From the sequence record KP085586: 50,109 nt of DNA; one strand, written 5' to 3'. How positions within the stretch are numbered: the stretch's first letter is position 1; every line of letters begins with the position of its first letter. Below, in pieces: positions 1,980 through 46,376 of this stretch. The notes below the pieces were generated by a model. That model did not search any database. It saw nothing but the letters and a program-made list of their open reading frames with translations, and was not told where the DNA came from. The position numbers and the translations under genes were made by a program. The DNA comes from Shigella phage pSf-2.

Positions 1980-2138
1980 TTACAGGTAGTAACCATTCAG
2001 AGGTGCTTGGATTACTGAGCCTCTACCGTCGTAAATCTCAAACAATCCCCAACCGAAATCATAACCAACACTATAGATCTGATTTACGCGGAATGGAAGT
2101 GTTTTGGAGTTATTTCGGATGCACTTAACTCGTTTCAT
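1980..2138 (-). CDS. hypothetical small protein (52 aa, not in ORF track)
   Basis: aaagagg SD before ATG 2138; sits 57 nt downstream of motif copy 2196..2213 with tatagt box. Confidence 0.35.
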   Translation of the reverse strand: MKRVKCIRNNSKTLPFRVNQIYSVGYDFGWGLFEIYDGRGSVIQAPLNGYYL

Positions 2139-2195
2139 GATATGTAGCCTCTTTGTTTTTGATGTTGTTACTATACCCGAATCCCTTCGGGCGTT

Positions 2196-2213
2196 TTTAT
2201 CAATTAGTGCGAT
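2196..2213 (-). promoter_or_regulatory. degenerate copy of 18-bp dyad motif (tttatcaattagtgcgat on + strand)
   Basis: 15/18 match to tttagcaattcgtgctat; tatagt 22 nt downstream on minus strand. Confidence 0.4.
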
Positions 2214-3355
2214 CCTGTCATTTCTGGACGGTAGATGAATCGACCTATCTCACCAAATTGCTTGTCGTAAACGATTACCGCCGCCTGACGATATGAGCGC
2301 CACCCGCCGCGCGCGGCGTATGCATCCTTCGCTCCTAACTGACCGTGAACCTCATCGATACCTAACGAGTGTTCAGTGATTGTCTGATGATGCCAGTGAC
2401 CGCTATGAGTATACACATACTTGCTCTCTCCGAAGTCTGCACGGAAGTCTGCCGCCATCGCTGCAAGTCGCGTGTCTGCCTTTTTCATAGTGTGCCCGTG
2501 AGTGTATCCCAATAAGGTGTTTCCCCATCGAGTCTTATGCAGAATCATAGGGCTAACGTCAACGAATACTCGCGGCTCGTCTTCATAATATGCCGACATT
2601 GCAGCACGTAGCCAAATCATCCCGGCCTGGTCGTGGTTCCCTTCAATAATCTGAACCTCGACTTCTTTGTGTTTCATAAGCATTTTGTCGATAGCGCGAC
2701 GCACAGAACGGATCGCAACATGCACCAATTTTGCGTATCGTGAATCCTGATCCAGAACGTGACCGCTTGCCGGGGTAACAGCATCAAGACCGTCCGAGTG
2801 AAGGAAGTCACCGCCAATTAACAGAACAGCCTTCTCTGCGTTAGGGGCAATATCGATCGCGTAATTGAAGAAGTCGCCAAGCACTTTTTCAGCTACGTCG
2901 GTAGAGTAGTTCTCTCCGCATTCATGCTTGTGAGCAAGCGCACCAATATGAAGATCGAATACCGGATAGAGTGCCAGCTTACCAATCTCTGTCGTAAGCC
3001 CTTGCGAGGTTAGTAGCTCGGTTGGCTTTGCTCGCGGCAGGTCTTCACAGAATGCAATACGCGCCGCTTCCATCATTGCCGCAATCTTCTCACGGTCCTG
3101 ATCGGTTTTTACCCAGCGCACTACCTCGGTCCCATCGCCGCGAATCATCGTCGACGTGCCTTTTACCATGAATCCCTCTGGCACGTTTTTAGCAACATGC
3201 TCGTTACCGTGAAAATGACCTTCTTTTGCCAGCTTTGCATGGCGCGCTTCAACAGTGCGAATGTGCATACCGTATTTTTCCGCGATTTCGCGAAGTGTTA
3301 GGCCGCTCATGCGCTCTTCAATAAGTTGCTCGGTGGTGATTTTAGCTTGTGACAT
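2204..3355 (-). CDS. HTH domain fused to calcineurin-like metallophosphoesterase
   Basis: N-terminal HTH (LTLREIAEKYGMHIRTV); phosphoesterase motifs FDLHIG, GGDFLHSDG, EGNHD, GYTHGH, HSGHWHH. Confidence 0.75.
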   Translation of the reverse strand: MSQAKITTEQLIEERMSGLTLREIAEKYGMHIRTVEARHAKLAKEGHFHGNEHVAKNVPEGFMVKGTSTMIRGDGTEVVRWVKTDQDREKIAAMMEAARIAFCEDLPRAKPTELLTSQGLTTEIGKLALYPVFDLHIGALAHKHECGENYSTDVAEKVLGDFFNYAIDIAPNAEKAVLLIGGDFLHSDGLDAVTPASGHVLDQDSRYAKLVHVAIRSVRRAIDKMLMKHKEVEVQIIEGNHDQAGMIWLRAAMSAYYEDEPRVFVDVSPMILHKTRWGNTLLGYTHGHTMKKADTRLAAMAADFRADFGESKYVYTHSGHWHHQTITEHSLGIDEVHGQLGAKDAYAARGGWRSYRQAAVIVYDKQFGEIGRFIYRPEMTGSH

Positions 3356-3433
3356 ATTTTAATCCTTACATGATAATGAAATACATTACTGAAAATGAAA
3401 TTAGCGGTGTTAATACTACAGCAAAATAAAGTT

Positions 3434-5637: not shown

Positions 5638-7652
5638 TCCGGGATATCCTCCATACCGAAGTCTTTGCGTGAAATAATATCTTCTTTCTTCTGGTTGCGT
5701 CGATGAGTTACGCGCACCGGGTGAGCAATATGATGTGAGTACTGCACGATCTTGATTGCGTTCTTCATTCCGATAAAGTAGCGACGCATTTTAGGATCTG
5801 ACACATGAGGCAATACGCCCTTCGTTTTCCATAGCGTACCGCAAATCTTAGAGTCGGACTCAGGGAAGAATTTTTCATACGCCTTGAACTCATCACCATC
5901 ATCGTTAATCAGCGTGTATTTGTATATCACGCCCTTTTGGTTTTTGGTTAGCGTTACCTCAAAATTCTTGACCTCATACCAGTCATTCTTGGTGTACGCC
6001 TTGCCGGACAATTTCAGGTTAGGATCGACAAGTGACACATCACAGCAACGACAAACTCGGGCGACAACGTCATTCTCGGCACCACATCCTTTAACAAGAA
6101 TTTTCCCGGTTCGCTCATCAACCTGGTCCTCGCAAATCTGAGAAATCCAGAAGTGATCGCATCTCTCACCGTCTATAACGTTAACGCATCGGCGAGCGTA
6201 GAAGCTATTAACGCAACCACACTTAGGACACGTTTTCGGGTCTTTGCCGTTTTCAAAACGCTTCTGGAATTGCGCCTGCTCAAGTATCGGATCGAAATAA
6301 AGCTGACCCAACTCATCCATCGTACCTGCGAAATCCCATACCAGATGGTCCTGCTTAACCATTCCCTCAGCAACCTGCCAAGATTTAAGCAGACGCATAC
6401 CCCTACCCAAAAGTTGAATTAACAGTGTGAGCGACCCTATTTTGCGGAGTATGACACTGAAATCCCAATTTGGAACGTTAACACCAGTAGTGAGCGCCAT
6501 TACCTGAAAGGTGTATTTAATTTTTCCGGCCCTTACATCGTCAAGAATCTTCTTGCGCGCTTTGTTGTCTGTGTCGCCAGTGATGATTGCATAGGTACTT
6601 CCCGGAGGAAGTGCCGCCGCCGCCTCTTTGCAGTGACGCACCCCGGCGCATGTAATCAGTACCGCGTTACGCTCTTCAGCCTTTTTGGCAACCATTTGCA
6701 TGATTCGCTGAGTAAGAGATTTATCATGAAGGATCTCATCTTCCATTGCCTTCATATCTTTCTCTGTAAAGTCCTGTACCCCATCCTCGCTTGACGCCTT
6801 GAATTTATCAAGATCGTAGTGAACTCCGTCCGTCGAACCGAATATAGTCGGCACAACAGAACCGAACTCAATAAGATAATTTGTGTCAATATCAGTCACG
6901 CGCTCACGCCAGAATCCAAGCGCTTTCGGATTCTCTACCAGAATAGGAACTACGCCCCGAAATTCAGATCCAGTCATACCAAATATTCTGAGATCGTGAC
7001 CGTGAACCTTTTTACAGCGCCGCATCATTTCCATGATTACGATCGTGTACTGGCTTCGCTTAGTTCCAAGTAAAGGTTTCCCGTCATTACCAATCAGAGG
7101 AATATCCCCGTCCATAATAACTTTCCCTTTCTCGCCCTTCATCTGCTCCATCGTTTCCTTTCCTTCGATGGCTTGCGCAAGATCTTCCCAATCCACCTGG
7201 TGACATTCGTCGATCCCAATTACATGCGGGACAAAATCAGCCAACTCATTATCGAGGCCATTTGCAACCGTACCCTCAGAGCCAACCACGATCGGAAAAT
7301 AGCAGGACTTAATGCCCAATGAGGCTGAGAATATGGAGTTAGTTACCCCGAAATTGTCAATCTCCTCACTATCCTGATCGACAATCTCACCCTGGCGAGC
7401 CAGAACGAGCATTTTTAATCCCATTTTCTGACACTGCTTTGCAACCATAGCAAAAATGATAGTCTTACCAGCAGATACTGACGCTTTAACAAAGAATGGG
7501 TGCTCGTAATTTGATAGGCGTTTCGCGATCTCGGTATAAGCAACAACCTGGTACGGATAAGGAACAACCTCACCAACAGTAAATCGCTCCTGAGTTCGCT
7601 TTATGTAGTCCTCGCCAAGTAATGCAATCTGCTTTTTAATGTTCATTGTCAC
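5634..7652 (-). CDS. SF2 DEAD/DEAH-type DNA helicase with C-terminal Cys cluster
   Basis: Walker A SAGKTI, motif II GIDECHQ, motif VI-like LLGRGMRL, CPKCGC...C zinc cluster. Confidence 0.75.
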   Translation of the reverse strand: MTMNIKKQIALLGEDYIKRTQERFTVGEVVPYPYQVVAYTEIAKRLSNYEHPFFVKASVSAGKTIIFAMVAKQCQKMGLKMLVLARQGEIVDQDSEEIDNFGVTNSIFSASLGIKSCYFPIVVGSEGTVANGLDNELADFVPHVIGIDECHQVDWEDLAQAIEGKETMEQMKGEKGKVIMDGDIPLIGNDGKPLLGTKRSQYTIVIMEMMRRCKKVHGHDLRIFGMTGSEFRGVVPILVENPKALGFWRERVTDIDTNYLIEFGSVVPTIFGSTDGVHYDLDKFKASSEDGVQDFTEKDMKAMEDEILHDKSLTQRIMQMVAKKAEERNAVLITCAGVRHCKEAAAALPPGSTYAIITGDTDNKARKKILDDVRAGKIKYTFQVMALTTGVNVPNWDFSVILRKIGSLTLLIQLLGRGMRLLKSWQVAEGMVKQDHLVWDFAGTMDELGQLYFDPILEQAQFQKRFENGKDPKTCPKCGCVNSFYARRCVNVIDGERCDHFWISQICEDQVDERTGKILVKGCGAENDVVARVCRCCDVSLVDPNLKLSGKAYTKNDWYEVKNFEVTLTKNQKGVIYKYTLINDDGDEFKAYEKFFPESDSKICGTLWKTKGVLPHVSDPKMRRYFIGMKNAIKIVQYSHHIAHPVRVTHRRNQKKEDIISRKDFGMEDIPE

Positions 7653-7745: not shown

Positions 7746-8198
7746 ATGAGTATTCAACGTATCGCAGAGTCAACTGGTGAAATCGATAAACGTCACATCA
7801 ATGGTAACAACGGAACACGACGCGGTAAAGACAAAAAGCCACGACAGCGCTGCGGCTTCTATATTCATAAAGAAGAAACACGCGCCGGATTGCGAGCGCG
7901 ACTTGATGCGCTTATCGAATATTATGGTGGCCCTGCGGCCTGCGCAAAAGCTCTAAAGGTTAGCAATCAGACGGTGCAAGGCTGGAAAGAACGCAACATG
8001 ATTTCGTGGCAAGGTGCTGAAGCTGCGCATCGTGCTTACCGACGACAGGGGTGTAAAGGATTTCGTGCCGCATGGTTGCGATTCGACCTGAAGTTTGACG
8101 GTAACGGCAAGTGCCTTGAGAAGCGATGCAAGAACAAGAAATTTATGCGCGTCGTGAAGAAGGAAGATATCGGGACGACCAATAGCATTTTTAGTTAA
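7746..8198 (+). CDS. HTH DNA-binding protein (candidate transcription regulator)
   Basis: aggaga SD; Cro/CI-like HTH segment CAKALKVSNQTVQGW; basic protein. Confidence 0.55.
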   Translation: MSIQRIAESTGEIDKRHINGNNGTRRGKDKKPRQRCGFYIHKEETRAGLRARLDALIEYYGGPAACAKALKVSNQTVQGWKERNMISWQGAEAAHRAYRRQGCKGFRAAWLRFDLKFDGNGKCLEKRCKNKKFMRVVKKEDIGTTNSIFS

Positions 8199-46300: not shown

Positions 46301-46318
46301 ATAGCACGAATTGCTAAA
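46301..46318 (+). promoter_or_regulatory. 18-bp dyad motif copy (atagcacgaattgctaaa)
   Basis: 22 nt (with hairpin ccccga/tcgggg) then tatagt; caaccaatcaggag leader to ATG 46377. Confidence 0.7.
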
Positions 46319-46376
46319 CGCCCCGAAGGGAATCGGGGTATAGTAAACAACATCAACCAATCAGGAGAATCGCCAG

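Follow-up and report, generated by a model that had tools for sequence, protein, structure and literature searches.

A two-domain helix-turn-helix/metallophosphoesterase protein of the T1-like Shigella phage pSf-2, a candidate DNA-tethered nuclease

The A1 protein of phage T5, a predicted metallophosphatase, is both necessary and sufficient for the degradation of host DNA, and its authors have likened it to Mre11/double-strand break-repair nucleases and to the proofreading subunits of polymerases (bioRxiv 10.64898/2026.04.02.716235). Gp48, a cluster A metallophosphoesterase (MPE) of mycobacteriophage A10ZJ24, has phosphodiesterase activity and disrupts host genomic DNA (PMC12287305). The window analyzed here, the whole 50,109-nucleotide stretch of Shigella phage pSf-2 (sequence record KP085586), encodes a protein in which an N-terminal helix-turn-helix (HTH) domain precedes a calcineurin-like MPE domain. 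We refer to this protein as HTH-MPE, and on balance favor the view that it serves phage DNA metabolism as a DNA-tethered, Mn-dependent nuclease. An earlier note on this DNA had described an open reading frame (ORF) with these two domains; the ORF runs exactly from ATG to TAA on the minus strand and encodes 383 amino acids. The observation is correct, and chance is excluded.

By megablast, the window belongs to a T1-like phage (Drexlerviridae, Tunavirus), and the HTH-MPE gene is 99.7% identical in nucleotide sequence to that of Shigella phage phiL and 97.8% to that of Shfl1. The Shfl1 counterpart, Shfl1p67, is labelled ‘DNA repair exonuclease, similar to T1p16’, and by sequence the HTH-MPE gene is the orthologue of T1p16 and Shfl1p67. 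PHROG 704 (‘DNA repair exonuclease’) matches residues 4–380 over profile positions 2–389 of 390 (E = 1.1e-156), and the profile itself covers the HTH, a hairpin module, and the MPE domain. HTH-MPE is a full member of this family, with no difference from the PHROG 704/T1p16 orthologues of Drexlerviridae, Dhillonvirus, Guernseyvirinae, and others, and it shares with them a position 5' of SH3, holin, endolysin, and spanin genes. The family name is annotation only. An exhaustive HMMER scan over 1.84 billion cluster representatives (50%-identity clusters) found relatives in 4,619 clusters at E ≤ 1e-3 and in 953 at E ≤ 1e-30; among the 150 matches listed, most are 370–420 amino acids in length. Homologues were detected by tblastn in 2,017 of 50,697 phage records (~4%), with query coverage of 80% or more in 1,945; phages of Escherichia, Klebsiella, Salmonella, Vibrio, Campylobacter, Rhodobacter, and Ruegeria are among them. 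Within Drexlerviridae the gene belongs to the persistent core, occurring in 508 of 522 genomes (PMC13164509). The GenBank entry for gp37 of Klebsiella phage Sushi notes a sigma-70 region 4 type 2 domain and a metallo-dependent phosphatase-like domain, and that for the homologue of Kagunavirus fFiEco02 (44% identical) records an HHpred match of 99.5% to the small subunit of Pyrococcus abyssi PolD. The gene family and its two-domain make-up are already known from public records, and the proposal that this is an unusual fusion does not stand, since the whole architecture constitutes one established family. The finding is thus mostly the re-discovery of an annotated gene.

The catalytic motifs are evident in the translation: motif I is D134-L-H136, motif II G182-D183-FLHS-D188-G189, motif III G239-N-H-D242, motif IV H286-G-H288, and motif V G319-H-W-H322. 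All five MPE motifs listed in the earlier note are present, with a correction to the second, which had been given as GDxxxDG; four residues separate the two aspartates. Conservation was assessed in 147 diverse relatives, each representing a 50%-identity cluster. D134, D183, H286, and H322 are kept in all 147, H136, N240, and H241 in 146, and H320 in 140. The retention of these eight metal-ligand positions in 95–100% of relatives, on which the earlier note had staked its assignment, indicates that enzyme function is under selection, and the invariant metal site predicts an active enzyme. The histidine of motif II (GDFLH), three residues past the metal-binding aspartate, is kept in 144 of 147; we take this motif to correspond to the ‘GDLFH’ signature of Mre11.

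Profile searches place the domain less readily. HTH-MPE alone matches Metallophos_2 (E = 0.014) and Metallophos (E = 0.035) of Pfam below threshold; against PF00149 and PF12850 it scores 15.0 and 15.8 bits, short of the gathering cut-offs of 21.5 and 27. Eleven to 12 of 64 aligned family members reach E < 0.01 for the Pfam MPE models. Only marginal matches were found in NCBIfam (PdeM, 0.059; sigma-70/ECF, 0.066), and a direct search of Protein Data Bank (PDB) sequences with the protein gave no match at E up to 10. Weak profile matches outside the HTH (hmmsearch, PDB) are mostly to nucleases, namely SbcD/Mre11 (E 0.09–0.3) and a nuclease MPE of P. putida (E 0.5). We conclude from these profiles and motifs that the HTH-MPE family is a divergent branch of the calcineurin-like MPE superfamily.

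An AlphaFold2 model of HTH-MPE, built from 64 diverse sequences (the query and 63 relatives), has a mean per-residue confidence (pLDDT) of 92.9 and a predicted template-modeling score (pTM) of 0.83. It consists of four N-terminal helices, a long β-hairpin, a further helix, a linker, and an α/β sandwich at residues 123–375 of the kind found in the calcineurin-like MPE superfamily (Table 1). Small-molecule phosphodiesterases come close behind the leading matches in the fold comparison (MJ0936, 13.8; LpxH, 13.7; YfcE, 12.8), with protein phosphatases of the PPP family much lower (≤9.0). Assignment to the PPP family (lambda NinI type) was rejected, as the GDxHG/GDxVDRG/GNHE motifs and a PPP-like fold were not found. 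A Foldseek search of viral models returned many phage proteins of 300–500 amino acids, several of them named ‘DNA polymerase II small subunit’ or calcineurin-like.

The N-terminus is a LuxR/sigma-70-region-4-type HTH and a putative DNA binder. The HTH fold that the earlier note had put forward as open to refutation is borne out both by the helices of the AlphaFold2 model and by family profile matches. Alone, HTH-MPE matches Sigma70_r4_2 below threshold (E = 0.023). Among the 64 aligned members, Pfam matches are to Sigma70_r4_2 in 10 (best 1.5e-9), to GerE in five (2.4e-8), and to HTH_1 in 13. A profile built from residues 1–110 of 31 members of the family matches, among PDB sequences, RhlR (8e-4), VraR (1e-3), and GerE (1.4e-3), as well as DesR, NarL, and sigma-H. 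The first 58 amino acids resemble LuxR/GerE and sigma-70 region 4 domains in the fold comparison too. Unlike those domains, which are joined to a receiver or ligand domain, the HTH here is joined to an enzyme. Its predicted recognition helix (within helix 32–44) is IRTVEARHAKLAK, in which a ‘TV..H/R’ pattern is visible. The same N-terminal profile matches 67 of 87 representatives outside the set used to build it (E < 1e-3); the remaining 20 are mostly fragments or carry another, divergent N-terminal extension. One family variant has two HTHs, one of which is a Sigma70_r4 above the Pfam cut-off. A ParB-like N-terminus considered for representative P0193 was dropped, there being no Pfam match.

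The description of an HTH followed by an MPE domain accounts for both domains and overlooked a conserved hairpin/helix module between them. As to size, the 230 amino acids claimed for the MPE domain fall short of the ~260 observed. Averaged across the family, identity is 21% in the HTH and 40% in the MPE domain; the HTH is the least conserved folded part of the protein, and the hairpin module matches the catalytic domain in conservation. The hairpin has the family consensus GFxVKGxSTLYxxDGxxxxQWVKT, with W81 kept in 142 of 147 relatives. This module is family-specific, and the fold search gave no separate fold match for it.

Mre11/SbcD resemble HTH-MPE in fold, with sequence identities of 12–17%. 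Archaeal PolD DP1, a 3'-5' proofreading exonuclease, has a phosphodiesterase domain of the type also present in HTH-MPE. The latter differs in having no DP2 catalytic partner, and the annotation of phiL, a near-identical complete genome, contains neither a DNA polymerase gene nor a Rad50/SbcC gene. From these comparisons, HTH-MPE may work like a stand-alone nuclease of the Mre11/DP1 type, yet it is a member of neither family. T5 A1 (PHROG 1745) differs in its length of 556 amino acids, in its large middle domain, and in being a pre-early gene product. In a PHROG cross-scan, A1 matched PHROG 1745 only and showed no cross-match with PHROG 704, and we keep A1 as a functional analogy, not as a family member. 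In relatives of A1 (45–48% identity, ~530 amino acids), an N-terminal HTH scores above Pfam thresholds (HTH_23, CENP-B_N, HTH_7; residues 3–46); A1 itself has no Pfam match. Since these relatives also have an HTH and then an MPE domain, the layout arose or was kept in a second phage family and appears to be a recurring phage design. The HTH-bearing relatives are P0342, P0344, P0345, P0372, and P0384, and one locus is L006 (1706–3376). Gp48 of A10ZJ24, likewise a phage MPE, has its motif I at residue 10 and so lacks an N-terminal HTH.

In the reading we favor, HTH-MPE would be a catalytically active phosphodiesterase with a two-metal site (probably Mn2+), structurally of the Mre11/SbcD/PolD-DP1 type and acting as a stand-alone DNA nuclease. 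The LuxR/sigma-r4-type HTH, perhaps together with the hairpin module, would hold the nuclease on DNA. Encoded by the last enzyme gene of a leftward DNA-metabolism operon, just 5' of the lysis cassette, it would break host or other non-packaged DNA into nucleotides that feed phage DNA synthesis. DNA is the most likely substrate, judging from the closest folds and from the retention of a DNA-binding domain; we infer the metal and the polarity of the nuclease as well. By analogy, breakdown of host DNA with nucleotide salvage is tentatively the likeliest role, and would place the protein beside T5 A1, mycobacteriophage Gp48, and T4 gp46/47 as their functional analogue. Neighbors in nucleotide and DNA metabolism, and the presence in phiL of a dNMP kinase with no polymerase, were counted in favor of a nuclease. 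Mutants in T1 ‘gene 2.5’ reportedly do not break down host DNA, which serves here as a lead only. HTH-MPE belongs to the core genes of the T1-like phages, a group put to use in phage therapy and notorious for contaminating laboratories. A host-DNA-destroying nuclease, if such it is, would explain how these polymerase-less phages supply their replication, and might bear on the frequency of generalized transduction, which is relevant to the safety of therapeutic phages.

Several observations weigh against a DNA-tethered nuclease that degrades host DNA. HTH-MPE ends with its MPE core and thus lacks the capping domain of Mre11; it also differs from Mre11/SbcD in lacking a Rad50/SbcC partner and in having an HTH and hairpin module. 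With hhalign, the probability of a match to E. coli SbcD is 2.7% over 16 columns, indicating no specific relation. The T1p16 family as a specific relative of T5 A1 was likewise rejected: hhalign gave 16% with the single sequence and 20.5% profile to profile (56 columns), the alignments cover 19–56 columns around motif III only, and hmmsearch gave 3.3 bits. In several lineages the gene lies in or near late or lysis genes and not among early genes, a location that fits a host-takeover nuclease more poorly. Other T1 nucleases, of the RecE-like, Erf-like, VRR-NUC, and HNH kinds, could degrade host DNA instead, and our literature search found no experiment on any member of the HTH-MPE family.

The fold similarity to SbcD and Mre11, and the public annotation as a ‘DNA repair exonuclease’, would equally suit a recombination or repair nuclease that processes ends or hairpins of phage replication and recombination intermediates in the manner of SbcD/Mre11. 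Together with a RecE-like exonuclease, an Erf-like annealase, SSB, and VRR-NUC, it would then make concatemers for headful packaging and spare the host DNA. This account, the main rival to the favored reading, is possible, if doubtful. A helicase and VRR-NUC are encoded in the HTH-MPE operon, the genome also carries RecE-like, Erf-like, and SSB genes, and in Dhillonvirus and Jedunavirus the gene is directly 5' of terminase genes. Mre11/SbcD, however, require the Rad50/SbcC ATPase and the capping domain for regulated end processing, and HTH-MPE has neither; it shows no relation to SbcD at the sequence level, and enzymes of the nucleotide pool are commoner among its neighbors than recombination genes. 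No Rad50/SbcC gene is annotated in the stretches of Shfl1 and Sushi that were examined.

The gene is the last sizeable one of a minus-strand operon that comprises a 672-amino acid helicase (start at 7652), VRR-NUC, Dam, and four small ORFs. A search of the 78-nucleotide gap 5' of the gene gave no sigma-70-like promoter on the minus strand, and the gene is therefore probably co-transcribed with the helicase/VRR-NUC/Dam operon. On its 3' side follow a 52-amino acid SH3-like ORF and then holin, endolysin, and spanin genes. The phiL genome encodes a RecE-like protein, an Erf-like protein, SSB, primase, two helicases, two methyltransferases, PNK, and a dNMP kinase.

Elsewhere, neighbors of the HTH-MPE gene include PNK-phosphatase and dNMP kinase in Webervirus and ThyX and dCMP deaminase in an N4-like roseophage; in Rhodobacter phage RcIroh they are lysis genes, with a DNA methylase and ThyX on the opposite strand. 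The gene lies between upstream lysis genes and downstream terminase in Dhillonvirus, and between upstream PNK and downstream terminase in Jedunavirus. In Guernseyvirinae, the gene occupies an island within the tail genes, and a dUTPase is found near a homologue on a metagenomic contig. Related loci were retrieved with a 13-sequence subset alignment, and genes within five positions were clustered for 80 IMG/VR loci, representing 17 lineages at 60% identity. Recurrent neighbors are a T1-type endolysin (seven of 17 lineages), dNMP kinase (four), and PNK-phosphatase (three); HNH nucleases, a nucleotide kinase, and a dNTP-pyrophosphohydrolase-like protein also recur. Two themes stand out in these contexts: nucleotide or DNA metabolism, and a location where early genes give way to late (lysis) genes. 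The gene adjoins lysis genes in several unrelated lineages, which may reflect function or merely the early/late boundary.

Two of these arrangements could speak for an enzyme that does not act on DNA as a nuclease: PNK-phosphatase is encoded directly downstream of the HTH-MPE gene in 11 loci, and in five the gene is directly 5' of a Q-like antiterminator, a position we take to be that of lambda ninI. The protein might accordingly be a Ser/Thr/Tyr protein phosphatase like NinI, a phosphodiesterase of (cyclic) nucleotide defense signals, or a phosphoesterase that heals RNA or DNA ends with PNK-phosphatase. We regard this as unlikely. The HTH is retained across thousands of clusters and has no obvious use with a small-molecule or protein substrate. 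The PADLOC defense models gave nothing beyond one marginal match (E = 0.013), and assignment to a defense or anti-defense family was dropped.

Table 1. Positions of the HTH-MPE gene, its encoded domains and motifs, and dyad elements in the window
Feature	Position	Strand	Remarks
HTH-MPE coding sequence, complete	2204..3355	(-)	383 amino acids + TAA stop; ORF list, ATG start
Shine-Dalgarno-like AAGGA (ribosome-binding site)	3363-3367	(-)	7 nucleotides 5' of HTH-MPE ATG; direct sequence reading
N-terminal HTH, residues 1-58, LuxR/GerE or sigma-70 region 4 type	3182..3355	(-)	helices 8-16, 21-27, 32-44, 52-56
β-Hairpin (residues 62-86) + helix 88-104, module residues 59-108	3032..3181	(-)	AlphaFold2; 43% mean family identity
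Variable linker, residues 109-124	2984..3031	(-)	11% mean identity; pLDDT dip to 77-86
Calcineurin-like MPE domain, residues 125-383	2207..2983	(-)	motifs I-V
MPE motif I	2948-2956	(-)	
MPE motif II	2789-2812	(-)	
MPE motif III	2630-2641	(-)	
MPE motif IV	2492-2500	(-)	
MPE motif V	2387-2401	(-)	
Exact dyads	7718, 9260, 37047, 38535, 40082, 44395, 44600, 45968, 46302, 47654		
One-mismatch dyads	4186, 5209, 12569, 24744, 28509, 41369, 42389, 43129, 45504, 48173, 48673		
Degenerate dyads	2198, 3854, 40808		
Degenerate dyad (2198-2212, two mismatches) over MPE stop codon + GC-rich hairpin (2176-2191)	2176..2212	(-)	

The earlier note had also proposed HTH-MPE as a binder of a ‘dyad motif’, which is almost certainly TAGCA-N5-TGCTA. 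This 15-base pair sequence was revealed by a custom half-site count and not by an inverted-repeat scan of the window. It occurs in 10 exact copies, against 0.04 expected from shuffles, and in 21 copies with at most one mismatch. The exact dyads are almost all intergenic, lie mainly in two divergent blocks of small genes, and are oriented with transcription. On the coding strand they read TAGCAC(GAAT/TTTT)TGCTAAA, with an asymmetric center (CGAAT or CTTTT), and several copies are followed 1–3 nucleotides further on by a GC-rich hairpin. The asymmetric, transcription-oriented center suggests an RNA or directional signal. The dyad could be a protein operator or a boxB-like RNA stem-loop (5-base pair stem, 5-nucleotide loop). 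The element that overlaps the stop codon of the HTH-MPE gene is probably a unit-boundary signal and lies outside the protein.

Were the HTH to bind these dyads, HTH-MPE would be a transcription regulator or a site-directed nuclease, a role that the MPE domain would modulate or carry out. HTHs of the LuxR/sigma-r4 type usually read dyad sites as dimers, the dyad is strongly over-represented, degenerate copies lie on either side of the gene (2198 and 3854), and the gene often stands at the early/late boundary beside Q-like or lysis genes. We nevertheless consider this reading highly improbable. Dhillonvirus EK99P-1 has the protein (50% identity over the N-terminal 97 amino acids), and its genome contains no copy of the dyad, nor is any other dyad enriched there. 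Between the window and Sushi proteins, the recognition helices differ at several positions while the dyad is unchanged, the HTH is the part least conserved, the center of the dyad is asymmetric and transcription-oriented, and it is the catalytic site that is under strong selection. For the notion of a regulator controlled by phosphoester hydrolysis, we found no positive evidence.

In the three genomes compared, the dyad instead tracks another protein. A T1p23-like ‘transcriptional regulator’ of 150 amino acids (7746..8198, plus strand) starts 13 nucleotides past an exact dyad; Webervirus Sushi has both this regulator and HTH-MPE along with seven exact dyad copies, and EK99P-1 keeps HTH-MPE without the regulator. 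Comparison of these three genomes (window, Sushi, and EK99P-1) weakly suggests that the T1p23-like regulator or another Drexlerviridae-specific factor, over HTH-MPE, may be the binder, and the proposal of the earlier note is not supported.

A combined form would have a nuclease/regulator recognize ~20 dyad-plus-hairpin elements at T1 transcription-unit boundaries, coupling DNA cleavage or processing to the temporal program. In a milder version, the sigma-region-4-like HTH would dock on host RNA polymerase or host sites and aim a host-DNA-destroying nuclease. We hold this to be very unlikely; if true, the milder version would supply the missing ‘host chromosome degradation’ function of T1 and a parallel in design to T5 A1.

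A T1p09-like helicase gene spans the window ends (48.7 kb to 50109 joined to 1 to ~200), and no terminal repeat was found between the two ends. As the ends meet inside this gene, the window represents an entire phage genome in circularly permuted form. The 52-amino acid ORF between the HTH-MPE gene and holin (1980..2138, minus strand) corresponds to the stand-alone SH3-like (DUF7244) protein that often accompanies the lysis cassette in Drexlerviridae (PMC13164509).

The exact dyad at 46302 is followed by the same hairpin as that at the stop codon of the HTH-MPE gene and by TATAGTAA(A)CAACATCAA. The two sites form a composite repeat (2140–2212, minus strand, and 46302–46345, plus strand) made up of the dyad, AACG, the hairpin CCCGAAGGGA(A)TCGGG, and TATAGTAA(A)CAACATCAA. 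Within it, TTGCTA/TTGATA is separated from TATAGT by ~22 nucleotides, a spacing that exceeds that of an ordinary sigma-70 promoter. Taken from the opposite strand, the hairpin and a run of T resemble an intrinsic terminator.

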